A stretch of DNA of 64,000 nucleotides, from NCBI GenBank assembly GCA_934184665.1, contig CAKPSX010000001.1, positions 1,688-65,687 of the forward strand, given 5' to 3'. The DNA comes from an uncultured Clostridia bacterium. GTDB taxonomy: Bacteria; Bacillota; Clostridia; TANB77; CAG-508. This document shows positions 2,979-28,900 of the stretch, in pieces. A program made the position numbers and the translations under genes. A model generated the notes under the pieces. The model was not told the DNA's origin. It searched no databases and saw nothing but the letters and a program-made list of their open reading frames with translations. How positions within the stretch are numbered: position 1 is the first letter of the stretch; each line of letters starts with the position of its first letter.

Positions 2979-3115
2979 AAAAATTATAATAAAATAATTA
3001 AAAATCCAAAAATAAAAAAATAAGAAAGTATTAAAAAAGAAAAAATGATGTTAACATATATATAAAATAGTACATAAATAATACATAAAAATAGTAAAAT
3101 AAAATTCTCAAAACC

Positions 3116-3144: not shown

Positions 3145-3183
3145 TACACATGTAAAAGAAAAAAGAAAGAAGGAGAAAAAACT

Positions 3184-6682: not shown

Positions 6683-6713
6683 TAGATTCTCCTTTTAAAT
6701 AATTAAGTAAAAT

Positions 6714-7745: not shown

Positions 7746-7926
7746 TCCTCTCTTAATGTATAATCTATTTTGTAAGATTATATACATTTTAGTCGAGAAA
7801 ATCAAGTTTGAAACTAAAAGATTTTATTAGAAAAAAATAGATAAAAATAGAAAAAAATAGTTAGTAGTGTAATAATCTTGTTTTTCATAAAACTATAAAG
7901 AAAGTAGAAGAGATAAATAATAAAAA

Positions 7927-9478: not shown

Positions 9479-11209
9479 TTATTTTAATTTAAAATATGGA
9501 AACATTTTTAATTTACAAGGTGGAAATATGTGTGAACCATCAGACAAAAAAGCTAAAGAAGTAAACGTTTCCAAGTGTTGAGTAAAGAAATTTGTATCAT
9601 AAATAAAATCCTTTTGAGAATAAGTATTGATACTTTCGGTAATGTTGGAATCTTTTGAACTTAAAGAATTGAGAATAAAATTAAATCTTGTTTCTTTAGC
9701 ACTTTCAGAAATACTTGTTGAAGTTAAAGTTTTATCTTCTTTCCCTAGCTGTTTTTGAGACTCTTCAATTGTAAAAATATCATCAGTGCGAAACCAGATT
9801 TTATTTATTAAATTTTGAATAATTACTTTAACAGCAGTATCATCTTTTAAGGTATTTTTTAAAGATGAGTAACTTTGCGTACAAACAATATTTATACACT
9901 TAGCTTCTCTACTAAGAGAAAAAAAGTCTGAATCAGTTTTTGTTACATATTCAGCATATTCATCACAAATAAAAGCAGAAGGTTTTACTTTGTTATGAGA
10001 TAAATTATACATGATTTCAGACTGAAAGTCTAATTTTAAATATGCTGCAATTAGCTTAGAAAGATTTTTATATTCTGCGATATTCATATTTAATACAACA
10101 ATTTTACCTTTTGCCAGAGCCGTAGTAAATCCTTTAAAATTTAATTGTTCTTTTGGTGGGCAAAAAGTTTTTGAGACATTGTAATCAGAAATAAAAATAT
10201 TAGTAATTCTTGTGATTTCTGATTTTAATATAGATAATGTACGCTGGTCTAAGGAATTAAATTCTTTTTCAAAAAAGTCCAAGGCGGTGTTTAATTCATA
10301 AATTTGCTGATAAGATAATTTAGAATTATAAAATAAATTTTTTAATATTTGTAATTTTGATTTATAATAATCAGGTTCAGTTATTAATTTATGAATTTCA
10401 ATAAAAGTTACATATCCATTATTATATAACCTACACAATTTGATACATTCAGTTAAAACTTGTTCAGCTTTATCTAACCAATAAGATTCAGAATTATTTT
10501 CAGAAAAAAGAAGTAAAATTGTTTTTAATCTATTAGCTAAAACAACAGGTTTTAAATATGGTTTATGTAGCGGATTATATCTTATAGAAGAATTGAGTCC
10601 GATTTCTATAACATCTTTTTGAAGTCCATATTTTGAAGCAAACTGTTTTACTTGTTTAAAATAATTTCCTTTTACATCTAATACCAAGATACCTAACTTT
10701 TTATCAGGATTTAAACTATTAAATTTCATCAATTGTTCTGTAAAAGGGTACATTGCAGAACTTGTTTTTCCAGTTCCTATGGTTCCGGTTACAAGAAAAT
10801 TTTGATATAAACCAGACTCTGGTATGTAAATCTCTTTGTTATGTGTTAATTCACGACCTATTAATAAACCTAAACTTGTTGCGTTGGGAAGAAAACAAGA
10901 ATCATTTATTTTTTCATCACTTGGAGGTAAGTGTCGGAGGATAAGCTGATTAATTAAATTTAATAATATAATTATACTAGCAAATATATGACAGATTATA
11001 AAAGAGATTTTTATATAATGCCAAAGTACGGGATTATTATAACATATATCAAAAGGATGAAGTCCATAGGGAATTATAAGTTCAGTCGCCTGAAAGATAG
11101 GTATAAAAATATAATGTGCAAAAAGACAAAAGTCTAATAGATAAAAAACTAATAAAATAAATTTTTTAATAATGAGCCTCCTTTTTAGCTTTTTGTGATA
11201 AGTGTTTTT
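9479..11209 (-). CDS. VirD4/TcpA-like type IV coupling protein (ATPase), lacking a canonical start codon in its N-terminal TM region
   Basis: I translated the in-frame sequence upstream of the annotated Met myself. It gives two TM helices followed by a Walker A motif (FLVTGTIGTGKTSSAMYPF). The open frame runs to 11209 with no ATG, GTG or TTG. A GGAGG motif followed by ATT ATT occurs at 11168-11182 inside the end of the upstream small ORF. Confidence 0.55.
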   Translation of the reverse strand, partial: KNTYHKKLKRRLIIKKFILLVFYLLDFCLFAHYIFIPIFQATELIIPYGLHPFDICYNNPVLWHYIKISFIICHIFASIIILLNLINQLILRHLPPSDEKINDSCFLPNATSLGLLIGRELTHNKEIYIPESGLYQNFLVTGTIGTGKTSSAMYPFTEQLMKFNSLNPDKKLGILVLDVKGNYFKQVKQFASKYGLQKDVIEIGLNSSIRYNPLHKPYLKPVVLANRLKTILLLFSENNSESYWLDKAEQVLTECIKLCRLYNNGYVTFIEIHKLITEPDYYKSKLQILKNLFYNSKLSYQQIYELNTALDFFEKEFNSLDQRTLSILKSEITRITNIFISDYNVSKTFCPPKEQLNFKGFTTALAKGKIVVLNMNIAEYKNLSKLIAAYLKLDFQSEIMYNLSHNKVKPSAFICDEYAEYVTKTDSDFFSLSREAKCINIVCTQSYSSLKNTLKDDTAVKVIIQNLINKIWFRTDDIFTIEESQKQLGKEDKTLTSTSISESAKETRFNFILNSLSSKDSNITESINTYSQKDFIYDTNFFTQHLETFTSLAFLSDGSHIFPPCKLKMFPYFKLK

Positions 11210-11381
11210 TTAATTTCAATTTTGAACCTTGTAGATTATGAAATAAATAAATATCAAAAAATGTATAAATTGAATATAAAGTAACTAAAATATTAATAAT
11301 ATAAATGATAAAAAATATATTGATTAACCTAATTATGTTTATCACCACCTTGTCGATAGACATAATACAACATTTTTTCAA
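11166..11381 (-). CDS. small TM protein ORF overlapping the start region of the coupling-protein gene (possibly its frameshifted N-terminus)
   Basis: A 71-aa ORF with one TM helix. It overlaps the coupling-protein open frame by about 44 nt in a different frame, and the shared region contains an A7 run. Confidence 0.35.
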   Translation of the reverse strand: MKKCCIMSIDKVVINIIRLINIFFIIYIINILVTLYSIYTFFDIYLFHNLQGSKLKLKKHLSQKAKKEAHY

Positions 11382-11446
11382 TTTTGTCTATACTTTTTTG
11401 AAAAAATATGTTAAAATATAAATATCGAACAAAAAAGGAGGTCACT

Positions 11447-11632
11447 ATGAAGTTTAATAAAGATACTAAAATAGGAGAAATTTTAGAGGTTGCTCCAGAT
11501 AAAGTAGATATATTATTAGAAAGTGGAATGCATTGTATAGGATGTCCTGCATCTCAAATGGAAACATTAGAAGAAGCATGCGAGGTTCATGGAATAGATG
11601 TAAATGAAGTTTTAGAAAAACTTAATGCTTAA
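11447..11632 (+). CDS. DUF1858-like small redox/disulfide protein
   Basis: The sequence MKFNKDTKIGEILEVAPDKVDILLESGMHCIGCPASQMETLEEACEVHGI has a CIGCP motif. A strong RBS (aaaaaggagg) precedes the internal ATG. Confidence 0.55.
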   Translation: MKFNKDTKIGEILEVAPDKVDILLESGMHCIGCPASQMETLEEACEVHGIDVNEVLEKLNA

Positions 11633-11698
11633 AAATGAACAAAAACACTAAAAAATACAAAAATCTAAAAATTTTTTAAAAAAAGTTTAAAAAATGTA

Positions 11699-11727
11699 TT
11701 GACAATTCTCATAAAATAGTGTAATAT
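11699..11727 (+). promoter_or_regulatory. consensus sigma-A promoter for the tRNA cluster (TTGACA-17-TAATAT)
   Basis: Read directly from the sequence, about 28 nt upstream of tRNA-Lys. Confidence 0.6.
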
Positions 11728-11755
11728 TAAAAGGCGTTGTTCAATACAAGCAAAT

Positions 11756-11831
11756 GGGCTATTAGCTCAGGTGGTAGAGCACTTGACTTTTAATCAAGTT
11801 GTCCCGCGTTCGAGTCGCGGATAGCTCACCA
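11756..11831 (+). tRNA. tRNA-Lys (anticodon UUU)
   Basis: A cloverleaf with acceptor stem gggctat/atagctc and anticodon stem cttga/tcaag with loop cttttaa. It has an encoded CCA. Confidence 0.85.
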
Positions 11832-11872
11832 ATGAATTCTAAATGAAATACTTTAGAATTCATATATTTTAT

Positions 11873-11947
11873 GGCCCCGTGGTCAAGAGGTTAAGACACC
11901 GCCCTTTCACGGCGGAGTCATGGGTTCGATTCCCGTCGGGGTCACCA
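11873..11947 (+). tRNA. tRNA-Glu (anticodon UUC)
   Basis: The anticodon stem is ccgcc/ggcgg with loop ctttcac. The T-arm is ggttcgattcc and the 3' end is CCA. Confidence 0.85.
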
Positions 11948-11951
11948 CAAC

Positions 11952-12028
11952 GCCACTTTAGCTCAGCTGGCCAGAGCACCGCACTTGTAATGCGGGGGTC
12001 CCCAGTTCGAATCTGGGAAGTGGCTCCA
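11952..12028 (+). tRNA. tRNA-Thr (anticodon UGU)
   Basis: The acceptor stem is gccactt/aagtggc. The anticodon stem is ccgca/tgcgg with loop cttgtaa. The 3' end is CCA. Confidence 0.8.
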
Positions 12029-12101
12029 TATAAAGGTCAATAGTTTTGAGAAAGCTCTTAATTATTGGCTTTTTATTTTTTTAGATTAGAAGGGAATAAA
12101 A

Positions 12102-12821
12102 ATGGAAAAGATAGCACTAGTAACAGGAGCATCAAGGGGAATAGGACGAGAGATTGCTTTGAATCTAGCAAAAAAAGGTTATAAAGTAATTGCAAACTAC
12201 AATAAATCAAAGCAGCAAGCAATTGAATTAGAAAAAGAAAATGAAAATATAGAAATATATCAAGCAGACATATCCCTAAGAGAAGAAGTTCAAAAAATGA
12301 TAAAATATATAATAGACAAATATAATAAGATTGATATATTAATAAATAATGCTGGAATTTCAGAAACAAAAATGTTTACAGATGTAACAGATGATGATTG
12401 GAATAAAATGATAAAAAACAACTTGTATTCAGCATTTTGTGTAACTCAAGAAGTATCAAAAAATATGATACATTGGAAACAAGGATGTATAATAAATATA
12501 TCATCAATATGGGGAATCGTAGGTGCATCATGTGAAACAATATATTCAATAACAAAAGCAGGAATAGATGCAATGACAAAATCATTAGCTAAAGAGTTAG
12601 GCCCATCAAATATAAGAGTAAACTCAATTGCACCTGGATTTATTGATACAGATATGAATAAAATGTATAATGAACAAGAAATAAATGATATAAAAAAGGA
12701 GATACCACTTGAACGTGTTGGAAAAACCATAGATATAGCTAAATGCATTAATTGGCTTATAGATGATGAATATACAACAGGTCAAATCATTTCTATAAAT
12801 GGTGGCTGGATAATTACATAG
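12102..12821 (+). CDS. SDR-family oxidoreductase, 3-oxoacyl-ACP reductase (FabG)-like
   Basis: Motifs present are TGASRGIGREIA (NAD(P)-binding), NNAGI and YSITKAGIDAMTKSLAKE (the catalytic YxxxK). The protein is 239 aa. Confidence 0.85.
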   Translation: MEKIALVTGASRGIGREIALNLAKKGYKVIANYNKSKQQAIELEKENENIEIYQADISLREEVQKMIKYIIDKYNKIDILINNAGISETKMFTDVTDDDWNKMIKNNLYSAFCVTQEVSKNMIHWKQGCIINISSIWGIVGASCETIYSITKAGIDAMTKSLAKELGPSNIRVNSIAPGFIDTDMNKMYNEQEINDIKKEIPLERVGKTIDIAKCINWLIDDEYTTGQIISINGGWIIT

Positions 12822-12971
12822 AAACCCAATTTAAAGTGTTATAGCCAAAAACTAAAAATGATAATAAATATCAAGCAACTTATATATAAAAGAAAAAGCG
12901 GAATTATAGTGTTTAAACTATATCCGCTTTTAAAAAAATATATAATTAAAAGTACTGTTTATATTAATATA

Positions 12972-13445
12972 TTAATTTTCATTTTCAATTCTTTTTCTGT
13001 AATTTCCAGAAATAAGTTTAGGTAAATAAGTAATTATTTTATATATAGCTAAACGTATTTTTTTACTCCATATATAGCTTTTTCTCAATTTTCTGGCATT
13101 ACCTAGAGAAACAGGTTCATCTTCTAAAACGATTAAATCTGTTTGCTTTTTTTCAATAGGAAAAACATAATTTTTTCCTGAGTTATTATCCCATTTACCA
13201 TTTTCATTACAAAAACAGAAGTTAAGAGTTTCAGCAGAGTTGATTTCTATTTCTGTTTGAAAACCAAGTTCAGTTTTTTCCATATTTGCATCATGAATAT
13301 CATCCCAATTATGCCCAAAGCCATAGTGGATAAGCACATTTTTTGAAGCATCCTGAAAAAACTCTCCTGTATAAGATATTTTAACTTTACTATTTTCGGT
13401 TAATTTATCCGTATTAAAAAAAATATTCTTTGTTAATTCCATTTT
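12972..13445 (-). CDS. hypothetical protein, possible carbohydrate-binding beta-sandwich module
   Basis: An RBS (gagggag) precedes the internal Met (MELTKN...). An aromatic/Gly-rich motif (HYGFGHNWDD...NGKWDNN) is present. The upstream part of the tracked ORF is probably not translated. Confidence 0.4.
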   Translation of the reverse strand, partial: KMELTKNIFFNTDKLTENSKVKISYTGEFFQDASKNVLIHYGFGHNWDDIHDANMEKTELGFQTEIEINSAETLNFCFCNENGKWDNNSGKNYVFPIEKKQTDLIVLEDEPVSLGNARKLRKSYIWSKKIRLAIYKIITYLPKLISGNYRKRIENEN

Positions 13446-13675
13446 GAATTCTCCCTCATCTTTTGTTAGAACAATTATAATATTAATTTTTACAATATTC
13501 AAGTATTTTCTTAAAAAAAATTGTAAAAAATTTAAAAAAATGTAAAAAACCAATTTATCCTTAGAGTAATAAATGTTTGAGAAAGACATATAAATAAATA
13601 TCAAGACTTTTACTAAAAAAATTGTCAAAAAAAGAAATATATGATAAGATATATTATAGGTAAAAGGAGAAAGAT

Positions 13676-15523
13676 ATGAAAGAGAAAAATAAAGAGAACA
13701 GTGGAAGTGTAGAACTGCTTGAAAAAGTAGAAAATGCTGAGGTAGAAAAAGTAAATAGTCAACCAGAAGAAGACAAAAAAACTACCAAGAAAAATAAAAA
13801 GCTGAAGCAAAATAATTTAGAAAAAGGAAACAACAAAGAAACAGAGCAAAAACCACCAGAGATCAACCAAGATACAGAACAAAAGAAGCAAGAAGAAGAT
13901 GAACCTGTGAAAGAAAAGGTAGAAATAAAAACATTAGAAGAAGCAAAGGAAGAAGACCAAAAAGAAAACAGAGTAGAAGTAGAAAAGAAATACACAAAAA
14001 CAAATGTAATATTAATAGCAATGGGAATTATAGTTGTAATAATAGCAATACTTTCAACCATATTTGCAGTAATAAATCTTGGCAGTGATAAGATTATGAA
14101 AGGTGTTTATATAAAAGGAATAGACGTATCAGGAATGACAAGACAAGAAGCAGAAGAAACACTGAAAGAAAAATATGCATTAATAGAAGAAGACCAAATA
14201 TATTTAACATATGAGGAATTTGAAACAGCAATTACATACCAAGCATTAGAAGTTAATTACCAGATTGAAAAATCAATAAATGAAGCATATGCAATTGGTA
14301 GAAAAGGAAATGTATTTGAAGAAAATATAGAAATAGTGAAAACATGGATGACTCCAGTAAACATAAAATTAGATATAAGTATAGATGAAGACATGGTTAA
14401 GCAGATATCGCAAAATATAAATAACAGCATAAAAGATGCAGTCGTACAATCAAGTTATTACATAGAAGGTAAAAATCTTATAATAACATCAGGAAAAGAA
14501 GGCAAAATAGTAAATGCAGATAGTCTTATAGAGAAAATTTATAATTCATTAGAAGAAGAAAGTAACGAAAAAATAACAATACCAGTAATAACAGCACAAC
14601 CAGAAAAAATAGATTTAGAGAAAATACATCAAGAAATATATAAAGAGGTACAAAATGCATATTATACCACAGATCCATTTACCATTTATCCAGAATCTGA
14701 AGGAATCGATTTTGATGTAGAAAACGCAAAGACAATAATATCAGAAGCAAAAGAAGAATATACAATACCATTAAAAATAACTAAACCAACAAAAACAGTA
14801 AGAGACATAGGGACAGCTGCATTTCCAGATAGACTAGGAAGTTGTTCAACAAAATATTCATCAAATGCAGATAGAACAACAAACCTAAAATTAGCAGCAA
14901 ATAAAATTAATGGTGTAGTATTGCTGCCAGGGCAAGAGTTTTCTTATAACCAAACAGTAGGCGAGAGAACAATTCAAGCAGGATATAAAGAAGCTGCAAC
15001 ATTTTCAAATGGAGAAGTTGTTAATGGACTAGGTGGAGGGATATGCCAAATATCATCAACACTTTATGATGCAGTAGTTTATGCCAATCTTGATGTAACA
15101 GTTAGAAGAAATCACCAGTTTGTAACATCATATTTACCAGCAGGTAAAGATGCAACAGTTGTATGGGGTTCACAAGATTTTAAATTTAAGAACACAAGAA
15201 AATATCCAATAAGAATTGAAGCAATAGTAAGTGGTGGAATGGCAACAATTAACATATGGGGAATAAAAGAAGAAGTTGAATATGATATATCAATTGAAAC
15301 AAGAAAAATAGCAACAATAAATCCTACAACACAATACATTCAAGATTCAACACTACCAGCTGGAAAAGAAGTAGTAAAACAAGCGGGAAGCAATGGAAGC
15401 AAAGTAGAAGCATATAAAGTAATGAAAAAAGATGGGCAAGTGGTTTCATCAACTTTATTATCAAGAGATACATATAATGCGAAGAAAAGAATAGTAAGAG
15501 TTGGTACAGGTGAACAACAATAA
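13676..15523 (+). CDS. VanW-family protein with an N-terminal K/E-rich region, one TM helix and a C-terminal G5 domain
   Basis: The VanW core is GLGGGICQISSTLYDAVVYANLDVTVRRNHQF...YLPAGKDATVVWGSQDFKFKNTRKYPIRIEA. The G5-like C-terminus reads SNGSKVEAYKVMKKDGQVVSSTLLSRDTYNAKKRIVRVGTG. Confidence 0.8.
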   Translation: MKEKNKENSGSVELLEKVENAEVEKVNSQPEEDKKTTKKNKKLKQNNLEKGNNKETEQKPPEINQDTEQKKQEEDEPVKEKVEIKTLEEAKEEDQKENRVEVEKKYTKTNVILIAMGIIVVIIAILSTIFAVINLGSDKIMKGVYIKGIDVSGMTRQEAEETLKEKYALIEEDQIYLTYEEFETAITYQALEVNYQIEKSINEAYAIGRKGNVFEENIEIVKTWMTPVNIKLDISIDEDMVKQISQNINNSIKDAVVQSSYYIEGKNLIITSGKEGKIVNADSLIEKIYNSLEEESNEKITIPVITAQPEKIDLEKIHQEIYKEVQNAYYTTDPFTIYPESEGIDFDVENAKTIISEAKEEYTIPLKITKPTKTVRDIGTAAFPDRLGSCSTKYSSNADRTTNLKLAANKINGVVLLPGQEFSYNQTVGERTIQAGYKEAATFSNGEVVNGLGGGICQISSTLYDAVVYANLDVTVRRNHQFVTSYLPAGKDATVVWGSQDFKFKNTRKYPIRIEAIVSGGMATINIWGIKEEVEYDISIETRKIATINPTTQYIQDSTLPAGKEVVKQAGSNGSKVEAYKVMKKDGQVVSSTLLSRDTYNAKKRIVRVGTGEQQ

Positions 15524-15958: not shown

Positions 15959-18900
15959 ATGAAAAAAGAGATTATCAGGAGAATATTTGCAATAATAGCA
16001 ATTTTTACAATGTTAGTGACAGACTTGGCACCACTTGGAACAGGTCTGATAAGTTATGCTGCAGATTTGAATAAATCGACGAATAACACTAATATTGAAT
16101 TTTCTGCGTATTTCAAGAATGAAGAGGGAGAAAGAATAAGTGAAATAACAACAAATGTACAAGAACTGAAAATGTATGCAGAGATTACAGTGAAAAATGA
16201 AGGATATTTCAATGGAGCACTGGAATTAACAGAAGGAAATTTCAACTTCAAAAATCAAATTCAGAGTGATGGAATAGGAAAAATTGAAGGAAATAAAATA
16301 ACATTAAACCAGATAAATGCAGGAAACACTGTGGAAATTGAAATAGGAATAATACCAATAAACTCAGATACAATCCAGGAATCTCAACTAAAGATGGAAT
16401 CAAAAATAAAACTAGCAGGCACATATATGGAGACATCGTACAAGGGAAAAGATATAGAAGCGGAAAAAACAGTTAATTTAAAACTAAGTGCACGAGAAAA
16501 CACCGATATAGAACAAAATAGCGAAGTTGTAACAAACAAAATATATAATGTAAATGGGGCAAACAAAAGAATAGTGCAAATAGCTGTAAAATCAAGAATA
16601 ACAGATAATAACTACCCAGTAAAAACATCAACAATAAAAGCAATAATACCGGAAAAAAACAAACAAAACTTAGAACAAGTCAAAATAGTCCAATTTAACT
16701 CAAAAGCGACAAATGGAAATGAAACAGTAAACACACAAGAATGGGATAAAACAGCAACAGAAGTACAAATGAAAACAGAAAATACAGGAGAATCAATATC
16801 ATGGAAAAAAGGAGTATATGACGAATATATTATAACTTATATTTTCAAAGAGGAAACAAATATAGCAGGAACAGACTTACAAATAACTGAAGAAACGGAG
16901 ATATACAACAAAGAAGATAAAATAACAAAAGATATTATAAATAATATAGGCACAGAAGAAATAGGAAAAACCATTGTAACAGAGATAAAAGATAATCAAG
17001 GAGAAATATACAAAGGTCAACTATATGCCAATTCTAGAACAGATGACAAAAGAACAATAAATTACAACACAACAACGAAAATTACAATAAGAGAAAAAAA
17101 TATAATAGACTCAGTGAAAGTAAAAGAAGAAAAAGATGCATATACAACTGCAGAAACAGGTGATTTAGAACTTAATGAAACATATAAATATACAAGAATA
17201 AACAAAGAAAAAATGATAGAACTACTAGGGGAAAGCGGAACAATACAAATCAAATATGGAGATTATAATGTAAATACAATATCAGCAGAAGATGAAGCTG
17301 ATGAAAATGGAGAATTAATTGCAAAATATGATGAACAAGTTGGAGAAATAGAAATAGTAACATCAAGACCAGTAAAAGAAGGAACATTAGAAATTAAGCA
17401 TGAAAAAGAAATACTACCAAGTAATTATACAGAAGAGCAAATAAAGCCAATAACAGGGATAAAAACAAAAAATACTATAACAGGGTTGATTAGAAATCAA
17501 GAAGTAATAACAAACACAACAGAACAAACAAAAGAATTAAAAGAAACACAATCAAAAACAGAACTTACAGTAAATAAAGTGAACTTATCAACAATGTCAG
17601 AAAACAAAGATGTAGCGCTAGGGGTTAAATTTATAACAAATGGAACACAATATGATTTATTTAAAAACCCAATAGTAGTTATTCAACTACCAGAACAAGT
17701 AAAAGATGTGACACTGAAAGGAGTTGACAAAGTATGTGGAGATGAATTCACAATAACAAGAAAAGAATATGATAAAACACATAAGAGTATTGAAATAGAA
17801 TTAGACGGAGAGCAAACAGCATATGCAGAAAATGATGCAACACAATTATATTTACAAGTTAATTTAGATATAACACTAGAACAAACAGCAGCAAGTAAAA
17901 CAGAAAAAATAATAATGTCATATAAAAATGAGAACGCGATTCAATATGCGGAAAATGGAGTTACAGAAAAAGCAATAAATATAGCAGCGCCAAGTGGAAT
18001 AATAACAATAAATAACTTAAATACATATAACATAAATTCAGTAGCAGGAATAAGTCAAAACAAACAAACAGCTAATATAGATAAAAACACAGAGGGTGGA
18101 AAAAATGTAGAATATAAAATATCAGTAGTAAACAACACAGGAAGCAACATAAATAATGTAAAAATATTAGGATATTTCCCAACAAAAGGAGAAATACAAA
18201 CACAAAACGAAACAATAACAAATACATTAGAAACAAGTGTTGCGCAAGCAATACAAGCTGGAAACGCCAGAGTATATTATAGTGAAAATAGCAAAGCAAC
18301 AGCAGATTTAGAAAATACATCAAATGGTTGGACACAAGACACAAGTGCAATAGCAAATGCAAAAGTTTACTTAATAGACTTAGGAACAATGAATGTTGGA
18401 ACAAGTTTTACAACAGGATATATAAGCAAAATATCAACAAACATAGATTATAATTTATCATCATATGCAGGATATAAAGTTTTATATAATGATGAACAAA
18501 ATACACAAATACAAACAGTAGAGTCAACATTGGTGGGAATGGAAACAGAAAATAGAATAACAGAAACAGACTTAAAAATAGAAACAAATATAGAAGCAAC
18601 AGTTGGAAATGACGTATTAAAAAATGGAGATACAGTAAAAGCAGGGGAGATAATTAAATATAAAGTAACTGCAAAAAATACAGGGGATAAAGATTTAAAA
18701 AATGTAACAATAAAAGGTTTAGTTCCAGAAGGAACAGTCGTAACAGAGTTTATTACGCCTCAAGGGGCAGATACGGATTTTGAAGAACCAGAATGGCCAA
18801 TATATTGGAAGGAGAAAAAGGAGCTAAAAGAAGTTTCTAAAACAGTAGATTTAGAACAAGGACAAGAATATAGCATAGAATATGAAGTAAGAGTAAACAT

Positions 18901-20800
18901 GGATATTACAAATGGAACAGAAATATCAAATAGAGCAGTGGTAACCTGCGGAGGACTTACTTTAAATGGTAATGAAATAAAAAATATACTTCAAGAATCA
19001 AAAATAAGAATAAGTTTAGTAGAAATGAATACAGAAAAAAAACCAGTACAACCAAATACTTTAAGAGATTACTTTTTAATTGTTGAAAACACATCAAATG
19101 AACCTATAAAAAACTTAAAATTAAAAATGCAAAACTCAGGAGAAGAACTAGTAAAGATTTTAGACAATAATCTTAATTACATATTACAAGAAGATGGATA
19201 TGCAAATATAGAAGAGATTCCAGCAAATGATATGGTTGTTTTAGAAATCATGGCAACAGTATCACAAAGTGACTTACAACAAGTAGAATCAGTAGCATTA
19301 ATTACAGATTCAAATGAAAATACATATAGATCAAATAAATTAATTAGTAAATTAGAACAGGCAAAAGTAGAATTAAGTTTAACAAGTCCAACAGCAGGAC
19401 AATATGTAAACATAGGAGATTATATAATTTATAATATAACAGTAGAAAACCCAACAAACTGTGTAGAAGATGTGGAAATATCAAATCAATTATCAGAATA
19501 CTTAGTAGTTGAGGAAGTATATATAAATGGGGAATTAACAATTCAATCTATAAATCCTGAAGATACAGAAACATATCTTCAAGACATACTAAATGAAACA
19601 ACATATACTCTAATAATAGAAGAAAATCAGAAAAGCGAAATATCTATAAAAGCTAGAGTAAATGAAATTACTGAAGATTTTGATAAAATAACAATAACAA
19701 ATACTGCGCAAGCTACAGTAAAAGGAGAAGTAAAAGCAACATCAGAAGAAATAACACACACAATAGTTAGACAAGCCAGTGAATCAGAAGAAAAAATAAT
19801 AAGTGGTGTTGCATGGTTAGATGAAAATCAAGATGGACAAAAAGATACAAATGAAAAGTTATTACAAGATATAACAGTAAGATTGTTAGACACAGAAACA
19901 AATCAACTTGCTATAGACAAAGAAGGAAATATACTTGAGACAACAACAGGAGAAGATGGAACATACAAATTTAGCAAAGTACAGGAAGGAATATACATAG
20001 TAGTATTTGATTATGACACAACAAAATATGAACCAACAATTTATATGAAAGATGGAGTTAGTACAGGACTAAATTCAAAAGCACTTGCAAAAGTATTTGA
20101 TGGAGAAGTTAAAGGAAATGCAGGAACAGATATAATATATTTAACAGAAAATTTATATGATATAAATTTAGGCTTAAAACAAAACTTAAAATTCGACTTA
20201 GAATTAGGAAAATATATAAATACAATAGTTGTACAAAATGCAAAAGGAACAAAAACATATGAATGTAAAGATAATGAAACACTAAAGAAAATAGAAATAA
20301 ATTCAAAACAAATTGAAGGTTCAGTAGTAGTATTAGAATACAAAATAAAAGTAAAAAATACTGGGGAAATTGCAGGATATGTTACAAACATAAGAGATTA
20401 TTTACCAAATGGATTAACATTTAGCTCAGAATTAAACCCAAACTGGTACTTATCAGGAAAGGATTTATACACAAAAAGTTTAGCAAATACAAGAATAGAA
20501 CCAGGAGAAGAAAAAGAAATAAACTTGATATTAACAAAAACAATGACATCAGACAATGTGGGACTAATAAACAATAGAGCAGAAATTGCAGAAAACTATA
20601 ATGAACTAGGAAAACAAGATATAGATTCAACAGCAAATAACCAGTCAAGTGAAGAAGATGATATGGGAGCAGCAGATGTAATCATAGGAATAAGCACAGG
20701 TATGAAAACAGCAATATCTACAATTTTAATAACATTAAATATATGCTTAATAGGTTTTGCAATATATTTAATATCTAGAAAAAGCAGTGAAATAAACTAA
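15959..20800 (+). CDS. giant secreted surface protein A (1613 aa) with DUF11/TIGR01451 repeats, an SdrD-B/CnaB-type domain and a C-terminal acidic patch + GISTGM + TM + basic tail
   Basis: The signal peptide is MKKEIIRRIFAIIAIFTMLVTDLAPLGTGLISYAAD. Repeats are of the type KAGEIIKYKVTAKNTGDKDLKNVTIKGLVPEGT. The SdrD-B-like segment is ISGVAWLDENQDGQKDTNE...GEDGTYKF. The C-terminus is EEDDMGAADVIIGISTGMKTAISTILITLNICLIGFAIYLISRKSSEIN. Confidence 0.85.
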   Translation: MKKEIIRRIFAIIAIFTMLVTDLAPLGTGLISYAADLNKSTNNTNIEFSAYFKNEEGERISEITTNVQELKMYAEITVKNEGYFNGALELTEGNFNFKNQIQSDGIGKIEGNKITLNQINAGNTVEIEIGIIPINSDTIQESQLKMESKIKLAGTYMETSYKGKDIEAEKTVNLKLSARENTDIEQNSEVVTNKIYNVNGANKRIVQIAVKSRITDNNYPVKTSTIKAIIPEKNKQNLEQVKIVQFNSKATNGNETVNTQEWDKTATEVQMKTENTGESISWKKGVYDEYIITYIFKEETNIAGTDLQITEETEIYNKEDKITKDIINNIGTEEIGKTIVTEIKDNQGEIYKGQLYANSRTDDKRTINYNTTTKITIREKNIIDSVKVKEEKDAYTTAETGDLELNETYKYTRINKEKMIELLGESGTIQIKYGDYNVNTISAEDEADENGELIAKYDEQVGEIEIVTSRPVKEGTLEIKHEKEILPSNYTEEQIKPITGIKTKNTITGLIRNQEVITNTTEQTKELKETQSKTELTVNKVNLSTMSENKDVALGVKFITNGTQYDLFKNPIVVIQLPEQVKDVTLKGVDKVCGDEFTITRKEYDKTHKSIEIELDGEQTAYAENDATQLYLQVNLDITLEQTAASKTEKIIMSYKNENAIQYAENGVTEKAINIAAPSGIITINNLNTYNINSVAGISQNKQTANIDKNTEGGKNVEYKISVVNNTGSNINNVKILGYFPTKGEIQTQNETITNTLETSVAQAIQAGNARVYYSENSKATADLENTSNGWTQDTSAIANAKVYLIDLGTMNVGTSFTTGYISKISTNIDYNLSSYAGYKVLYNDEQNTQIQTVESTLVGMETENRITETDLKIETNIEATVGNDVLKNGDTVKAGEIIKYKVTAKNTGDKDLKNVTIKGLVPEGTVVTEFITPQGADTDFEEPEWPIYWKEKKELKEVSKTVDLEQGQEYSIEYEVRVNMDITNGTEISNRAVVTCGGLTLNGNEIKNILQESKIRISLVEMNTEKKPVQPNTLRDYFLIVENTSNEPIKNLKLKMQNSGEELVKILDNNLNYILQEDGYANIEEIPANDMVVLEIMATVSQSDLQQVESVALITDSNENTYRSNKLISKLEQAKVELSLTSPTAGQYVNIGDYIIYNITVENPTNCVEDVEISNQLSEYLVVEEVYINGELTIQSINPEDTETYLQDILNETTYTLIIEENQKSEISIKARVNEITEDFDKITITNTAQATVKGEVKATSEEITHTIVRQASESEEKIISGVAWLDENQDGQKDTNEKLLQDITVRLLDTETNQLAIDKEGNILETTTGEDGTYKFSKVQEGIYIVVFDYDTTKYEPTIYMKDGVSTGLNSKALAKVFDGEVKGNAGTDIIYLTENLYDINLGLKQNLKFDLELGKYINTIVVQNAKGTKTYECKDNETLKKIEINSKQIEGSVVVLEYKIKVKNTGEIAGYVTNIRDYLPNGLTFSSELNPNWYLSGKDLYTKSLANTRIEPGEEKEINLILTKTMTSDNVGLINNRAEIAENYNELGKQDIDSTANNQSSEEDDMGAADVIIGISTGMKTAISTILITLNICLIGFAIYLISRKSSEIN

Positions 20801-20812
20801 AGGGGGATGGAA

Positions 20813-23800
20813 ATGAATAAAATAAAAAAAGTGATTTTTATATTATTAATTAGTTTCGCTATTTTAATATTGAAAAACAATGTTTCTTTTGCTGCCGTAG
20901 ATATTACAAGCTTACATGAAAATGCTGTAAAACAAAAAGTAACAATCGGACAAAGATCAGGTCAATACAGACTAGAAGGAACAAACAATGTATATTGTAC
21001 ACAACACGAAAAATCCATGTATAACAATGCATATGCAAAAGTTAATACATATATAAAAATTAGTGGAAATAAAGTTCAAATCAGACAAGAAAATTCTGCC
21101 ACTTTAAAAGATGCAACATATAAAACAGGCTCAAATGCAGAAGAAATAAAAAATTGGAATCCTGCTTGGGGACCAGCTCCTAATCTATATGAATATAGTG
21201 GATATACAGAATATTATGCATTAGCTAATATATTAAAAAATATGCAAGGATATGGACGCTATAATGCATATACAACAACGCAAAGAAAATTATATGGATT
21301 TTTAAACCAAAGGCAAATCTTTATAGCAAATGAATTAGGACCATTTTTCAGCTCAAGGAATTATAATAAGACTAAAGATTTCTCAAAAGAATGGGCAGAT
21401 GCACAAACAGCGGAAAAAACAGGAAAAGGGTTCCAGGGAACATTAGAAATATACCTTTTAGTTCCAATAACATCAAGTGGACAAAATAAAATTGGTGTAC
21501 AAAACCTTATGGTAGTAACATATTCACCAAAAGTAGAAGTAGTAGATACAGCACTAACAATAAAAAAAGTAGATGCATATACAAACGATGTATTAGCAGG
21601 CGCTAAATTTATAATAGGTCAACAAGGAACAGGAAGTAATGGACAAGATGTATACCTAAAAAATTCAGTTAACCAAGGAAATACATATGATTATGAATGG
21701 ACAACAAATAAAAGCGAAGCAAAAATATATACGACAGATAAATACGGAAAAATTAATTTATATGATTTACCAGAAAAAATTAATGGAACAGATACATACA
21801 TAGTTTATACAATAGAAGAAACAGAACCGCCAGATGGTTATAAGAGCAATAGCAATAATAGACAAACAATGACAGCAACATTTTCGGGTGGATTAGAAGT
21901 CACAGTAACAGTTACTAATATACCTGACAGTTTTGATAATCAGTTAATTATTTACAAAAGAGATGCAATGACAAAAGAATCGCTTGAAGGAGTAGGGTTT
22001 GTTATAAAGAGACAATTGTTAAATCAATCTGTATCATCTAATGGAGAACACTGCTGGGATAATTCAGAATGGAGATATTTAAGAACAAATGGAAATGGCT
22101 CATATGAATGGGTTTCATCTAAGAGTAGTGCAGACACGTTTTATACAGATGCAAGTGGTAGAATAGTAATAAAAAATCTTGAAGTTTCAGAAACAACATA
22201 TGTATGGGAGCATTTTAGAGGATTATGTAGGTATCATAGTGGATATCGACAATACATATATCATCGTTCAGGTCACTATATGCCAAGAGAAACCCCAATA
22301 AATTATCAAGTAGAAGAAGTATCTATGCCATCAAAGCTATATGGAGACTATTGGGGAAATATAGGAAACCAAAAAAGCTTTGTTTTAACACCAAACTCAT
22401 CAAATGATTATATAACACAAGTTACAGTGGATAATATGCCAATATCTAAGCCTACAGGAAATGTGAAGATATCAGGAAAGGTTTGGGTGGAAGGAGCATC
22501 AACAAGTAAAGGAAACGGAAATTTCAATGATGAATATAATTCAGGAAAAGATGAATTATTAGCAGGAATAAGAGTATATTGGAAAGATGCATCAGGAAAT
22601 ATTATATCTACTGCGGTAACAAATGGTAATGGAAGATATGAGATGGGATATACAATAAATTATGATTTCTGTACATGGTCAATGGATCAACAAGTATATA
22701 ATAGATTAAATAACTCATATATAGAATTTGAATATGATGGTAAGAAATATACGACAGTAAAAAATAATATGAGAAACTCGGAAAATACATCACGTGCAAT
22801 AGAAAATTATGATTCAAAAGCTAAATCAAGATATGATTTAGACTCATCATTTTGCAAAGTAAATAATAATGGAATTTATGATAGTGATAGTGGAGGAAAT
22901 AGAGTAACAGACTTTACGGTAACAGCAGATACAAGCAAAATAAAAAATATATTATCAGGAAGATATTATGACATAGAAACAGTAAGAAAAAATGGATGTA
23001 TTTATCACACATATAGAACAGTACATCATAAAGATGGATCAACAAGTACAGAAACAGTACACCATTATGATTACAGAATAACAGAATGGAACATAAAAAA
23101 CATGAACCTAGGATTGTTTGAAAAAGAACAACCTGATTTAGGACTAGTATCAGATATAGCAAAAGTAGATGTAATAATGAAAGGACAAAAATATACATAT
23201 ACAAATGGAAATAGAGGAATAACATCAGATGATTATGGTGTAAATACTAAAGTATCTTTTGGAAATAATGAAACATATAATAGACCAGTAAATCCATCAG
23301 ACATAGCATATGTAAATGATAATAATACTCAAGACCTAGAAGTATATATAACATATAATATAAGAGTACAAAATCAATCATCAACATTATATACACAAGT
23401 AAAAGAAATTGTTAATTATTATGATAGTAGACTTGAAATAGTTCAATCAGACAATCCTAAAAAACAATGGCATGATACGAGTCAATATAGTACATATGGA
23501 AACCAAATTAAATCGAATGGATTTAATAAAGCATACAGTACTGAACTCGCGACAGATGAGGATGGATATGATTTACTTTTGGAACCACAGACTTTATCTG
23601 ATACAATAGAAATAAAATTTAGAGTAAAAGATGAAGTAGTAAAAAGCTTAATAAATCAAGAGCCTATATTATTTAGCAATGTATCTGAGATTTATGCATA
23701 TGCATCATATTATGGAAGTGATACATGGTGTGCAGAACACACAACAGCACAAGATAGATGGAGAACAGGACAAAGGTATTCGGGATTAGATATTGACTCA

Positions 23801-25753
23801 TCACCAGGAACAGCGGAAATATCAATGCAAAGTGATAAATTAGATACAAAAACATATGAAGATGATACAGATCTTGCACCAACATTTAAATTACAAGCAG
23901 ATGAAAATTATAAAATAATATCTGGAACAGTTTTTGAAGATTCTCAAACAGAAGAAAGTAAAAAGACAAATGAAAGACTAGGAAATGGAATAAAAGATAA
24001 TGGGGAAAATGCAGTAGAAAATGTTAGAGTCGAATTATTACGTGTAAATGATGAAGGAACAGAAACTGCAAAATTATATACAATAAATAATAAACAACCA
24101 GCAAGTACAGAAGCTGTAACATATACCAATGAAAATGGAGACTATTATTTTGAAGGTGTTGTAGTAGATAATTACATATTAAAATACACTTATGGAGGAA
24201 GCGACAATGAAAATGAAAAATCGTTAATTGTATATCCAAAAGAAGAAAATGGTACAACGAAAACAGAAAAAGCCGCTATTGACGCAAGAAACTATAAATC
24301 TACTATAATAACACAAGACCCTGTAAAAACGATAATGCAAAATAATACAAATGATGATGTTAAACAAAGTGATTTATTATGGCATTTAATAACAGATGAA
24401 AATGTATCAACAGCTGTAGACGATATTGATGACTTACATTGGAAATATAGAACAAAACAAGATGAAGAAAAAAATGTTAATGTAAATTATGATGAAGATA
24501 CTGAAATGGTAAATGAGAATACAAACAGACAATTAGATAAAGAAGCAAGGTTACAAATTAAATCTTTAATAAATAGTAATTTTGAAACACCTACAAGAGT
24601 ATCAGCATACAGTTTACCATTTAAAGTACAGGTAGAATATACAAAAGAGCAGATACAGGAAGTAACAGAAGAAGGTGGTAAACTGAAGAAAACAACTAAT
24701 GCAGCAGGACAAGAAGAAATAGTCAATGAAAGTTTTGACTATGATTGGGACAGATTTAATTTTGGAATTATAGAAAGACCAAGGGAAAACATAGTAGTTG
24801 ATAAAACTATAGACAGACTTAGAATAACATTAGCAAATGGACAAGTATTAACAGAAGGAAACCCATATGCAGGAAATATGGATTATACAAGGGCATTAGG
24901 AAATAAAGAAATAACAACAAGAGACAAATTCCTTAAAGCAATTCAAAAAGAAAAACAAGTATTTATGGAAATGGATACAGAATTAATACAAGGAGCAAAA
25001 CTAGAAATAATATATAAAATAACAGTTACAAACAATAGTGAAGAAGATGTTGAATATGACAAATATGATGAATTAACACAAGGAGGAGATGAAAAATATT
25101 ACTGGTATGGAGAAGTAGAAAGAGAAGGAAAGAAAATAGCAAAAGACAAACTTATAAAACAATCTACAGAATACTTAGTAGATTATGTTGATTCGAGTTT
25201 AGTTTGTGAAACAGGAAAAGATTCACAAAATGCAGTGTGGCAAAAGGTTAAAAAAGACCAACTTAGAAATCACATATCTCAGAAAGTATCAAATTCACTA
25301 AATGCAAATAACAAACAGGATTATACCATACTTGTAACAAATGCATTTAAAAACGTAGCACCAAATGAATCACACTCAGAAACATTATATGCAAGTAAAT
25401 TATTAGCAGCACAAGCAAAAGACCATGTTTATGAAAACCATACAGAAATAATACAATTAAATGGAAAAACAGCAAGGACGATATATCAAACAAATAAAGG
25501 AGAACAAATAGCCAAAGAATATAAACCAGGAGATTATGTGCCAAGTTTAAATGGAAGAGTTAAGAAACTTTCAGATGATACTACACAATCAATATTGGAA
25601 AGACTACATGAACAAGACGATGATTCAACAACACTATTTATAACTCCACCAACAGGACTACCAGAAAACATTAAAATGTATATGATAGTAGGAGCTATAG
25701 GATTAATTGCAATAGGAATAGAGATATGTATAATAAAACGAAAAATTACATAA
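20813..25753 (+). CDS. giant secreted surface protein B (about 1646 aa) with a conserved Cys-containing N-terminal domain, SpaA/CnaB isopeptide-type domains and a C-terminal ITPPTGL + TM + KRK sorting-like signal
   Basis: The signal peptide is MNKIKKVIFILLISFAILILKNNVSFAAVD. The N-terminal domain contains VYCTQHE...TTTQRKLY. A CnaB hallmark YTIEETEPPDGY is present. An SdrD-B-like segment reads ISGKVWVEGAS...NGNGRYEM. The C-terminus is EQDDDSTTLFITPPTGLPENIKMYMIVGAIGLIAIGIEICIIKRKIT. The gene starts 7-13 nt after the A stop. Confidence 0.85.
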   Translation: MNKIKKVIFILLISFAILILKNNVSFAAVDITSLHENAVKQKVTIGQRSGQYRLEGTNNVYCTQHEKSMYNNAYAKVNTYIKISGNKVQIRQENSATLKDATYKTGSNAEEIKNWNPAWGPAPNLYEYSGYTEYYALANILKNMQGYGRYNAYTTTQRKLYGFLNQRQIFIANELGPFFSSRNYNKTKDFSKEWADAQTAEKTGKGFQGTLEIYLLVPITSSGQNKIGVQNLMVVTYSPKVEVVDTALTIKKVDAYTNDVLAGAKFIIGQQGTGSNGQDVYLKNSVNQGNTYDYEWTTNKSEAKIYTTDKYGKINLYDLPEKINGTDTYIVYTIEETEPPDGYKSNSNNRQTMTATFSGGLEVTVTVTNIPDSFDNQLIIYKRDAMTKESLEGVGFVIKRQLLNQSVSSNGEHCWDNSEWRYLRTNGNGSYEWVSSKSSADTFYTDASGRIVIKNLEVSETTYVWEHFRGLCRYHSGYRQYIYHRSGHYMPRETPINYQVEEVSMPSKLYGDYWGNIGNQKSFVLTPNSSNDYITQVTVDNMPISKPTGNVKISGKVWVEGASTSKGNGNFNDEYNSGKDELLAGIRVYWKDASGNIISTAVTNGNGRYEMGYTINYDFCTWSMDQQVYNRLNNSYIEFEYDGKKYTTVKNNMRNSENTSRAIENYDSKAKSRYDLDSSFCKVNNNGIYDSDSGGNRVTDFTVTADTSKIKNILSGRYYDIETVRKNGCIYHTYRTVHHKDGSTSTETVHHYDYRITEWNIKNMNLGLFEKEQPDLGLVSDIAKVDVIMKGQKYTYTNGNRGITSDDYGVNTKVSFGNNETYNRPVNPSDIAYVNDNNTQDLEVYITYNIRVQNQSSTLYTQVKEIVNYYDSRLEIVQSDNPKKQWHDTSQYSTYGNQIKSNGFNKAYSTELATDEDGYDLLLEPQTLSDTIEIKFRVKDEVVKSLINQEPILFSNVSEIYAYASYYGSDTWCAEHTTAQDRWRTGQRYSGLDIDSSPGTAEISMQSDKLDTKTYEDDTDLAPTFKLQADENYKIISGTVFEDSQTEESKKTNERLGNGIKDNGENAVENVRVELLRVNDEGTETAKLYTINNKQPASTEAVTYTNENGDYYFEGVVVDNYILKYTYGGSDNENEKSLIVYPKEENGTTKTEKAAIDARNYKSTIITQDPVKTIMQNNTNDDVKQSDLLWHLITDENVSTAVDDIDDLHWKYRTKQDEEKNVNVNYDEDTEMVNENTNRQLDKEARLQIKSLINSNFETPTRVSAYSLPFKVQVEYTKEQIQEVTEEGGKLKKTTNAAGQEEIVNESFDYDWDRFNFGIIERPRENIVVDKTIDRLRITLANGQVLTEGNPYAGNMDYTRALGNKEITTRDKFLKAIQKEKQVFMEMDTELIQGAKLEIIYKITVTNNSEEDVEYDKYDELTQGGDEKYYWYGEVEREGKKIAKDKLIKQSTEYLVDYVDSSLVCETGKDSQNAVWQKVKKDQLRNHISQKVSNSLNANNKQDYTILVTNAFKNVAPNESHSETLYASKLLAAQAKDHVYENHTEIIQLNGKTARTIYQTNKGEQIAKEYKPGDYVPSLNGRVKKLSDDTTQSILERLHEQDDDSTTLFITPPTGLPENIKMYMIVGAIGLIAIGIEICIIKRKIT

Positions 25754-25916: not shown

Positions 25917-28900
25917 ATGAAAAGAAAAATTTTAGAAAAATTGTTGGTATCAATAATGATAATCACACTATCAGCAACCGACTTTTTAACGTTGGGCGCA
26001 AACTTAGTAAGTTATGCTACAGATTTGAGCAAAACAACAAACAATAATAACATTGAATTTTCTACATACTTCAAGGATGCAGAAGGTAACAAAGTTGACA
26101 CAGTACAGGAAGACATAAACAAAGAAGACCTTAAACTATATGCAGAAATTGCAGTAAAAAGAGAAGGATACTTTAATGGAACAATAGAATTACAAGAAGG
26201 TAACTTCAACTTCAAAAATACTGCAAGTGAAGGAATAAGCCATATAGATGGTAACAAAATAACATTAAACCAAATAAATGCTGGAAGCACTGTAGAAATA
26301 GAATTAGGCATAGCACCAGTTAAATCAGAGCAAATGATGCTAAGCCAATTAAATATGACATCAAAGATAAAATTAGCAGGAACATATATGGAAACTTCAT
26401 ATAAAGGAAAAGACATAAGTGCAGAAAAAAATGTTACTTTAAACCTAATAGCAGATGAGGCAAACTCATCTGCTGAGGTAAGCAACGAAATTGTAACAAA
26501 CAAAATCTTTAATGTTAATGGTGAAAATAAGAGAATAGTTCAAATGTTAGTAAAATCAAAAATAACAAATAATAACTATCCAGTAAAACAAACAACACTA
26601 ACAGCAGAAGTACCAGAAACGAATAAAGATAAACTACAAAAAATTGAAGTAGTAGCATTAAGAACAGAAGCAACAAATGGACAAGAAAACAATACAACTG
26701 TTACAAGTTCAACAACAGAAAATGGCGCAGAAATTCAAAACACACAAATAACAGTTGAAAATGCTGGTGAAACAATCAGCTGGAAAAGAAATACCTCAGA
26801 TGAATTTATCGTAACATATATATATGATGAAAATGCAAATGTAAATGGAACAGAATTTAAAACAAATACAGAAATAGAATTATATAACACAGAAAATAAA
26901 TTCAGTAAAGAAACATCAGCAATTGTAGGGACAGAAGAACTAAGCAATGTTGTGGTATCAGAAATTGAACTAGATAACACAGAAACATACAAAGGTCAAT
27001 TATATGCAAATACTAAAACAGAAGACAAAAAAGAAATACCTTTTAATACAACAACAAAAATCTTAGTAAGATCAGCAGGAATTGCAGAAGCAATAGATGT
27101 TAAAGAAGAAAAAGATACATTTACAGGAATTGAACTTGATGCAAATACAAGATATGTACAAACAGCAATAAATAGAGAAAGAATGTTAGCAATGCTAGGG
27201 CAAGATGGATATTTAGATATAACAGCAGGAGGAACAAGCTATAGACTAACAAAAGACAGTGAAGTAAATGAAAATGGAAACATAATAATTAATTACAATG
27301 AAACAGTAAGAGAAATAGAAATTTCAACAAGTAAACCAGTAAATGCAGGAGTATTAAACATTCAACATGAAAAAGCAATAATGGCAAGTGATTATGTTAC
27401 AGAACAAATAAAACCTGTAACAGGATTGATAGCAAAAAATATATCAACAATGAAGGCAACAATAGATACAACAGTTGAAAAAGGCGTTCAAGAAGCGGCA
27501 GAAAAAATTGCAGGAGCAACAACGGATGCAAAAAACGCAGCTGAAGACGTGATAAAAGATGGTGTTAAAGAAGCTGGAGAAAAAATTTCAGAAGTAATAA
27601 CTAAAAACGAAGATTCAGCAGAAAAACCATTAAAAGAAACATACTCAAAAGTTGAATTAACAGTAAATAAAGCAAACTTATCAACAATGTCAGTAAACAA
27701 TGATGTAGCATTAGGAGTTAAATTTATAACAAATGGAACACAATATGATTTATTTAAAAATCCAAAAGTAGTTATTCAATTACCAGAACAAGTAAAAGAT
27801 GTAACATTAAAAGGAATAGATAAATTATATGGAGATGAATTTACAATAACAAAGAAATCATATGACAAAGTAAATAAAATGATTGAGATTGAATTAAATG
27901 GAGAGCAAACAGCATATGCAGAAAATGATGCAACACAATTATATTTACAAGTTAATTTAGATATAACACTAGAACAAACAGCAGCAAGCAAAACTGAAGA
28001 AATAACAATGTCATATAAAAATGACAATGCTACAAATTATTATGAAGATGGAATTGTTACAAAAGCCGTAGGAATAAGTGCACCAAGTGGAATAATAACA
28101 ATAAACAATTTAAACACATACAACATAAATTCAGTAGCAGGAATAAATGAAAGCAAACAATTGGTAGACTTAGATAAAGAAACAGCTGGTGGAACAAATG
28201 CAGAATATCAAATATCAGTAGTAAATAACACAGGAAGTAAAATAAATAATACAAAAATATTAGGATATTTCCCAACAAAAGGAGAAATACAAACACAAAA
28301 TGAAACAATAACAAACACATTAGAAACAAGTGTTGCGGAAGCAATAAAAGCAGGAAATGCAAAAGTATATTATAGCGAAAATAGCAAAGCAACAGCAGAT
28401 TTAGAAAACACATCAAATGGTTGGACACAAGATACAAGTGCAATAGCAAATGCAAAAGTTTACTTAATAGACTTAGGAACAATGAATATTGGTGCAAGCT
28501 ACACAACAGGATATACAAGCAAAATATCAACAAATATAGACTATGATTTATCATCATATGCAGGATATAAAGTTATATATAATGATGGAGAAACTACACA
28601 AACAGTAGAATCAACATTAGTTGGTATGACAACAGAAGGCGGAATAAAAGCAGAAGATATTAAGATGGAAACGTCAGTATCCGCAACAGTTGGAAATGAT
28701 ACACTAAAAGATGGTGATACAGTAAAAGCAGGTGAAGTTATAAGATATAAAGTTACTGCTAAAAATGTTGGAGAAAGAAAACTTAAAGATGTTACAATTA
28801 AAGGACAAGTTCCAGAAGGAACAGTTCTAGTAGAACCAGAAGAAGAATTCAAATCAACAGGACTATCATATTATGTGGAAAAAACAGATGCAAAAGAAGT

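Follow-up and report, generated by a model that had tools for sequence, protein, structure and literature searches.

Probable old gene conversion between duplicated surface-protein genes of an uncultured Clostridia bacterium

Here we describe two paralogous surface-protein genes, A and A', in a 64,000-nucleotide (nt) stretch of DNA from an uncultured gut Clostridia bacterium. This whole stretch is referred to as the window, and coordinates are window positions unless another contig is named. The genes belong to a run of four large plus-strand genes in the order A-B-A'-B'. Two adjacent tracts in the centre of A, together forming its central block, and a third block towards its C-terminus resemble A' far more than their surroundings do. 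We consider it likely that this mosaic arose by old, non-reciprocal gene conversion from A' to A within a duplicated A-B unit, which acted patchwise, became fixed and does not constitute a working variation system. Support for gene conversion is good in the central block and moderate in the C-terminal block, which represents either an older conversion or a weaker signal.

Mosaic identity between A and A'

When A (15959-20800) and A' (25896/25917-30893) are aligned by codon, the overall nucleotide identity is 73%, and it is distributed very unevenly along the genes (Table 1). An earlier note on this DNA had singled out two near-identical segments and had proposed that A and A' exchanged sequence by gene conversion or segmental recombination. 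Both segments are real (88.9% identity at 17560-17900 and 93.5% at 18160-18420), and the peptide that was quoted as an example is present in both proteins. The description of these stretches as 90-100% identical was correct as to their high identity but overstated its degree: the blocks are 89-93% identical, and the longest exact runs measure 89, 54, 48 and 44 nt, every one of them inside the two segments. An independent repeat search returned the same +10093 register. The N- and C-terminal thirds of the genes had been described as far more diverged. This holds for the N-terminal part (67%), but the C-terminal third is uneven and includes a block that the note did not list (19780-20560, 85%).

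The sliding-window comparison that had been proposed was run for both gene pairs. The A/A' profile is patchy and strongly uneven, contrary to the uniform profile that had been named as speaking against exchange, and B/B' shows no comparable block, with no window above 82%. A single 100-codon window in B (23177-23465, against ~32770-33060 in B') has 19 sites that group the paralogues versus 6 that follow orthology, at an identity of 71%; this may be a very old conversion, or noise.

A two-state hidden Markov model (HMM) on triplet sites delimited A'-like tracts at 17570-17925, 18080-18958 (strongest up to 18563) and 19745-20281, and an interval maximum chi-square test with permutations selected 17575-18509 (p <= 0.005). 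Tract 2 stops immediately ahead of the first DUF11/CLIPPER repeat. At its 5' end, tract 1 adjoins a variable linker of A' that is rich in A, E and K. This is the insert that had been noted near residue 520 of A' with a length of ~45 aa; pairwise alignment confirmed it at ~42 aa. The linker is built from a unit of ~26 aa (roughly VKEAGEKISGATTDAK-SAEDVI) that is visible at the protein level only, and Tandem Repeats Finder detected no nucleotide tandem repeat in the insert. In an alignment of eight sequences, the number of units in A' varies: contig L005 has nearly none (1618 aa), the window one (1658 aa), contig L001 two (1684 aa) and contig L004 more.

Table 1. Genes, tracts and compared segments of the A-B-A'-B' locus. 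Quartets give informative sites as concerted:orthology.
Feature	Position	Strand	Counterpart in A'	Identity to A' (nt)	Quartets	Basis and remarks
Gene A	15959-20800	+				ORF (open reading frame), 1613 aa; fibrillar-adhesin-like surface protein; acceptor of the putatively converted tracts
Gene B	20807-25753	+				ORF, 1648 aa; partner surface protein with SpaA-type prealbumin-fold domain; control pair with B'
Gene A'	25917-30893	+				ORF; 1658 aa from ATG 25917, open frame from 25896; paralogue of A; tract donor
Gene B'	30850-35283	+				ORF and B/B' alignment; paralogue of B; likely true start is the ATG near 30880
Tract 1 in A	17570-17925	+	27663-28018		20:3	HMM on triplet sites, 65/75 paralogue-like; approximately the first predicted beta-sandwich of the central module
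Dip between tracts	17926-18079	+		79%	4:9	Orthologous signal kept; pS 0.45; HMM state 0
Tract 2 in A	18080-18563	+	28173-28650	93%	23:2	Most of the second predicted beta-sandwich
C-terminal A'-type block in A	19745-20281	+	~29838-30374		19:14	SdrD_B region; HMM 92/123
A/E/K-rich linker insert	27450-27602	+				In A' but not in A; immediately upstream of tract 1; strain-variable length
N-terminal part					40:156	
Middle					25:82	
Tail					9:22	
A segment	15959-17500			67%		
A segment	17560-17900		27653-27993	88.9%		
A segment (dip)	17900-18160			78.5%		
A segment	18160-18420		28253-28513	93.5%		
A segment	18560-19770			62%		
A segment	19780-20560		29873-30653	85%		Third block
A segment	last 240 nt			74%		

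Tree topology, direction and constraint

Contigs L001, L002, L003 and L005 share ~94-98% DNA identity and the A-B-A'-B' order with the window. They represent strains of the window species and encode the database proteins P0002 (L001-L003) and P0001 (L005). L004 belongs to a different species with the same four-gene order. For quartets made up of A and A' from the window and from L004, we counted the informative sites that support the concerted grouping (A with its own A') or orthology (Table 1). The concerted grouping prevails in both central tracts, orthology prevails in the N-terminal part, the dip, the middle and the tail, and the difference from the N-terminal part is strong for tract 1 (Fisher p = 4e-10), tract 2 (2e-12) and the C-terminal block (2e-5).

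Bootstrapped neighbour-joining protein trees of the individual segments show the same switch in topology. In the N-terminal tree, A and A' form separate clades (bootstrap 100 each), which places the duplication before the species split. In the central-block tree, A and A' of the window species fall into one clade (bootstrap 100) that is nested among the A' orthologues, and in the tree of the C-terminal block A is placed within the A' clade (bootstrap 99). In the tree of the middle region, A stands alone on a long branch.

The direction of the transfer can be read from diagnostic residues, at which A of L004 agrees with P0005 and A' of L004 with P0008, the two pairs differing from each other. 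At these residues, window A is mainly A-type in the N-terminal part (71:28, A-type:A'-type) and in the tail (14:7), and A'-type residues predominate in tract 1 (4:15), tract 2 (6:12) and the C-terminal block (7:32). A' itself shows the A'-type in every segment. As A switches to the A'-type in the tracts and A' keeps it throughout, A' is the donor and A the acceptor. The transfer was non-reciprocal: the donor remained unchanged and the acceptor was overwritten.

Similarity of this kind can also arise from purifying selection alone, if the blocks are the most constrained domains and their proteins diverged more slowly since one old duplication. Nonsynonymous divergence (pN) is indeed low in all blocks (0.06-0.13), and in an alignment with 110 homologues family-wide conservation is highest in the C-terminal region (mean pairwise identity 0.51-0.67). 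However, the family mean in the central block is 0.37-0.56 and not above that of its flanks, whereas A and A' reach 0.85-0.95 there. Synonymous divergence (pS) between A and A' falls from 0.46 in the N-terminal part to 0.27 in tract 1, 0.20 in tract 2 and 0.31 in the C-terminal block. At the same codons, orthologues differ more from each other than the paralogues of one genome do. We also determined codon identity at conserved residues, i.e., the fraction of positions with an identical codon where both proteins share the same degenerate amino acid. The N-terminal part (0.67), the middle (0.70), the tail (0.67) and B/B' (0.69) are saturated, as their values are at the level expected from codon usage at saturation (0.62-0.66). 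The values of the central block (0.86) and the C-terminal block (0.81) are significantly higher than that of the N-terminal part (Fisher p = 7e-7 and 7e-4, respectively). Constraint also leaves the switch in topology unexplained. We therefore rejected purifying selection as the main explanation, which is contradicted already for the central block, and regard it as very improbable. The pattern that the earlier note had set against its own proposal, in which the conserved blocks match the most constrained domain with equal synonymous divergence, was likewise not found in the central block. The uneven identity, the lower synonymous divergence and the change in topology together support the proposed recombination between A and A'.

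Several points nonetheless weigh against a transfer from A'. The C-terminal block coincides with the region that is best conserved across the family, and its quartets are split just 19:14, so part of its similarity to A' is due to constraint. Quartets limited to purely synonymous codons were too sparse to serve as a test by themselves. The trees are neighbour-joining trees of short segments, and the outgroup L004, the sole clear second species with both orthologues, is distant (~25% nt divergence). Finally, an A' allele imported from a related strain by transformation gives the same signal as the resident A'.

This last point belongs to a broader alternative, in which the tracts of A were gained by transformation from another strain or species and not from the resident A'. 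Allelic replacement from diverged sources is clear at this locus, where the window and L001 are 11-23% apart in the middle of A and ~99-100% identical in the flanks. On the other hand, the central block of A is sister to A' of the same species with a bootstrap of 100 and closer to it than to any of ~110 family members, and the resident A' is the closest relative of the A tracts among the ~110 homologues examined. An origin from outside is highly improbable in our view.

The strain-variable stretch in the middle of A deserves separate mention. It spans 18650-19800 (A residues ~900-1290), the most variable part of the gene, where the window is 77-89% identical to L001 (A at 61-4902 of that contig) and the same as L005. 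Outside it, the A genes of the window and L001 are ~99-100% identical. The L001 version is no nearer to A', and the difference looks like an allelic replacement from a diverged outside source. The B genes vary between strains as well. Window B is 70-81% identical to L001 B in its N-terminal part (21005-21500) and ~99-100% over most of the gene, and B' drops to 79-83% in two stretches (at window ~33900-34400, the part aligned to B 24038-24500).

Fixation and mechanism of the transfer

The tracts have pS values (0.20-0.31) between the divergence of strains (0.05-0.15) and that of the window and L004 orthologues at the same codons (0.33-0.40). The same mosaic, with the same boundaries, is found in three strains of independent assemblies (the window, L001 and L005), and the A and A' copies differ by 7-11% within the tracts. 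As the pS values are intermediate and these three strains have nearly the same A/A' profile, the event is old and fixed.

The agreement among assemblies also bears on the possibility of an assembly or binning artefact, in which reads of the paralogues were mixed to give a false chimera. The related contigs were assembled from metagenomes, and short-read assemblers can be misled by paralogues that lie 10 kb from each other. However, the mosaic occurs in four other assemblies (L001, L002, L003 and L005; five with the window), which differ in sample and assembler. The blocks show 89-93% identity instead of the 100% expected of a collapsed assembly, and both reading frames are intact. An artefact was rejected as the main explanation on the agreement of the assemblies and this level of identity, and we find it scarcely credible.

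The earlier note had called the pattern typical of concerted evolution, or of cassette-like exchange between tandem surface-protein genes with antigenic or adhesive variation. In its strong form, this reading has A and A' repeatedly swapping segments within populations and so giving adhesive or antigenic variants. Some observations fit such a process. The exact runs of 89, 54 and 48 nt are still long enough for homologous recombination, judging by what is generally known of minimal processing segments. In A' of L005, four clustered sites (aligned 17940-18022, ~80 nt) carry the A state, whereas A' of L004 and of the other strains carries the A' state; this weakly hints at a small recent conversion in the opposite direction, from A to A'. 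Strains show strong allelic mosaicism in the middle of A and in B, and isolated high-identity patches between A copies occur elsewhere, as at the C-terminus in L031 (89-90%). Set against this, the tracts and their boundaries are common to the three strains and have accumulated differences of 7-11%, silent partial cassettes are absent (A and A' are both full-length and carry a signal peptide and a putative C-terminal anchor), B/B' lacks a comparable block, and no recombinase gene was found in the ten flanking ORFs that were scanned. We also polarised within-species derived alleles with L004 as outgroup. Although 70-80% of them matched the paralogue, this test was rejected as confounded by the distant outgroup and by homoplasy in an AT-rich genome (~29% G+C). 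Ongoing variation is thus not supported: a cassette system was rejected as the main explanation because of the shared mosaic, the lack of partial cassettes and the diverged tracts, and we consider exchange that continues today to be very unlikely.

Under the conversion scenario that we favour, A and A' are old tandem paralogues in a duplicated A-B unit, the duplication having preceded the split from the L004 species. After this split, and before the sampled strains diverged, parts of A' would have been copied over the matching parts of A, which lies ~10.1 kb upstream, by non-reciprocal homologous recombination. Tracts 17570-17925 and 18080-18563 would have replaced A's own versions of two adjacent beta-sandwich domains, and the third block (19745-20281) probably stems from an earlier transfer in the same direction. 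A' would have been left as it was, while the chimeric A became fixed and then accumulated its ~7-11% nt differences from A'. Neutral and selected fixation would both be compatible with this course of events. The recombination pathway is what we infer from the pattern of tracts, and a dependence on RecA would be expected from general knowledge of such transfers.

The multiple switches along A (A, A', A, A', divergent, A', A type) fit patchwise non-reciprocal recombination. They do not fit a single unequal crossover, which would give one junction and a changed copy number. Patchwise conversion between direct repeats may have involved several events, or one heteroduplex that was repaired in patches. 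In either case, we read the mosaic as the trace of past ectopic recombination between direct repeats.

To place the tracts on the protein, we used an AlphaFold2 model of A residues 515-914 that was built from an alignment of 63 sequences. The predicted structure is all-beta, with a pLDDT (predicted local distance difference test) score of 91, and comprises two sandwich domains (model residues ~17-142 and 154-349), after which the first CLIPPER repeat begins. Tract 1 corresponds to model residues 24-142, i.e., domain 1, and tract 2 to residues 194-355, i.e., most of domain 2; the dip covers the domain junction and the first strands of domain 2. In this model, the tracts thus appear to span roughly two predicted beta-sandwich domains ahead of the isopeptide-type stalk repeats. 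Foldseek returned generic tandem Ig-like adhesin modules only, at low TM-scores (template modelling scores, 0.22-0.29): integrin alpha legs, MSCRAMM N2-N3, antigen I/II C-domains and PrgB. As these matches are generic and score low, no specific function can be assigned to the module.

The fit between tracts and domains allows a more elaborate reading, in which homogenisation is domain-precise and under selection, as the central module of A must dock the same partner as that of A' (e.g., B/B' or a wall component), with conversion continuing at low frequency and allelic imports shuffling domain-sized modules across gut Clostridia. The A-to-A' patch in L005, the high-identity patches elsewhere and the tract ends that fit predicted domain boundaries are compatible with this reading, which we nevertheless consider unlikely.

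Locus, gene family and known systems

The A protein has a signal peptide, beta-sandwich domains, DUF11/CLIPPER repeats, an SdrD_B domain and a putative membrane anchor at the C-terminus. Pfam DUF11 and SdrD_B match both A and A' with scores above the curated cut-offs, and TIGR01451 matches as well. The N-terminal 500 residues had no Pfam or PDB sequence match, and a PDB sequence search with A gave no match. B matches Pfam SpaA and the SpaA structure 5fgr in the PDB. Recent work characterised DUF11 as CLIPPER, a CnaA-like isopeptide-bond domain of which the stalks of fibrillar adhesins are built (PMC12617251), which makes A and A' adhesin-like surface proteins. All four proteins carry a signal-like segment at the N-terminus and a hydrophobic helix with a basic tail at the C-terminus. 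Inspection by eye of the C-termini of A, A', B and B' revealed no LPXTG motif. The helix and tail are preceded by GISTG in A/A' and by PPTG in B/B' (window 20700-20800 and 25650-25753), which might be variant sorting signals.

In the search of a large protein database, the A' alleles P0001 and P0002 were the best matches, and no near-identical A was listed. A' shares 96.6% identity with P0002, a protein annotated to start at MKRKIL. Yet L001, L002 and L005 do encode an A of 1613 aa with ~96-100% DNA identity to window A; these orthologues were recovered via the neighbouring genes. A contig scan with A alone as the query found no relative, and a later query with the family alignment succeeded. 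This profile scan of species-representative genomes yielded 72 loci, all of them from uncultured gut Clostridia or Clostridium metagenome-assembled genomes (MAGs), with human, rabbit, mouse and chicken hosts. A-B pairs, encoding surface proteins of ~1600 aa and 1300-1800 aa, are thus widespread in MAGs of uncultured gut Clostridia (L006-L077). None of the proteins of L006-L077 carries a source name, so the family appears uncharacterised.

A second A-type gene follows B in 28 of the 77 loci examined. A central block shared between the two A copies is absent from most of the other species with two A genes, whose copies are just 20-50% identical. Central homogenisation as a habit of the whole family was accordingly rejected, since no comparable central block was found when the other species were checked. 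Patches of high identity between A copies occur at other positions in two loci: 89-90% nt identity at the equivalent of A residues 1451-1550, at the C-terminus, in L031 (~9938-15397 vs 20271-25352), and 83-84% at 551-650 in L021 (675-5732 vs 9950-14998). These may be independent conversions.

Upstream of A, at 5666-7805 and 9479-10753 on the minus strand, the window contains genes for an IstB/DnaA-like ATPase, DnaB_2 and a TraG/VirD4-type coupling protein, which look like remnants of a mobile element. In L004, a TraG-like gene (19523-20797) lies directly downstream of B' instead.

The paired giant surface-protein genes of these widespread, uncultured gut Clostridia appear to evolve by domain-sized exchange between paralogues and by allelic replacement between strains. 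The converted tracts would mark interchangeable domains of the protein. In practical terms, a tree of the whole gene would misplace A beside A', and blocks that are 89-93% identical and 10 kb apart can mislead short-read assembly and strain typing at the locus.

Fibrillar adhesins with isopeptide stalks of CLIPPER (DUF11) domains (PMC12617251; PMC9210967) resemble A/A' in their signal peptide, tandem Ig-like beta-sandwich domains, DUF11/CLIPPER and SdrD_B stalk-type domains and C-terminal anchor, which in A/A' is putative. A/A' differ in lacking an LPXTG motif by eye and in that their adhesin role is read from their domains. A further difference is that A and B occur as conserved pairs, which are often duplicated, in uncultured gut Clostridia. 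In the yeast FLO genes (PMC3512402), tandem or dispersed adhesin paralogues likewise recombine into chimeric alleles of domain-sized blocks. The FLO genes are eukaryotic and their new phenotypes were shown by experiment, whereas the A/A' chimera is known here from its sequence.

The A/A' mosaic adds a new case, from an uncharacterised adhesin-like family, to a known process, and involves no new mechanism. The Helicobacter pylori adhesin paralogues babA/babB/babC and sabA/sabB undergo gene conversion (reviewed in PMC3960876). As in A/A', non-reciprocal homologous recombination between paralogous surface adhesin genes gives rise to chimeras of shared and divergent segments. In H. pylori, however, this is frequent, varies between strains, has been seen during infection and changes binding, whereas the A/A' mosaic is old and fixed, and A/A' are tandem direct repeats in a Gram-positive-type Clostridia bacterium. 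In Salmonella, tufA and tufB evolve in concert by RecA-dependent conversion. The duplicated mtrA genes of methanogens offer a further case, with long-lasting conversion (PMC4632066). In both systems, as in A/A', the paralogues of one genome are closer to each other than to their orthologues over part of their length, with lower synonymous divergence there. However, whole genes or large parts of them are homogenised over the long term in those systems, whereas in A/A' the exchange is limited to two or three domain-sized patches that have since drifted apart.

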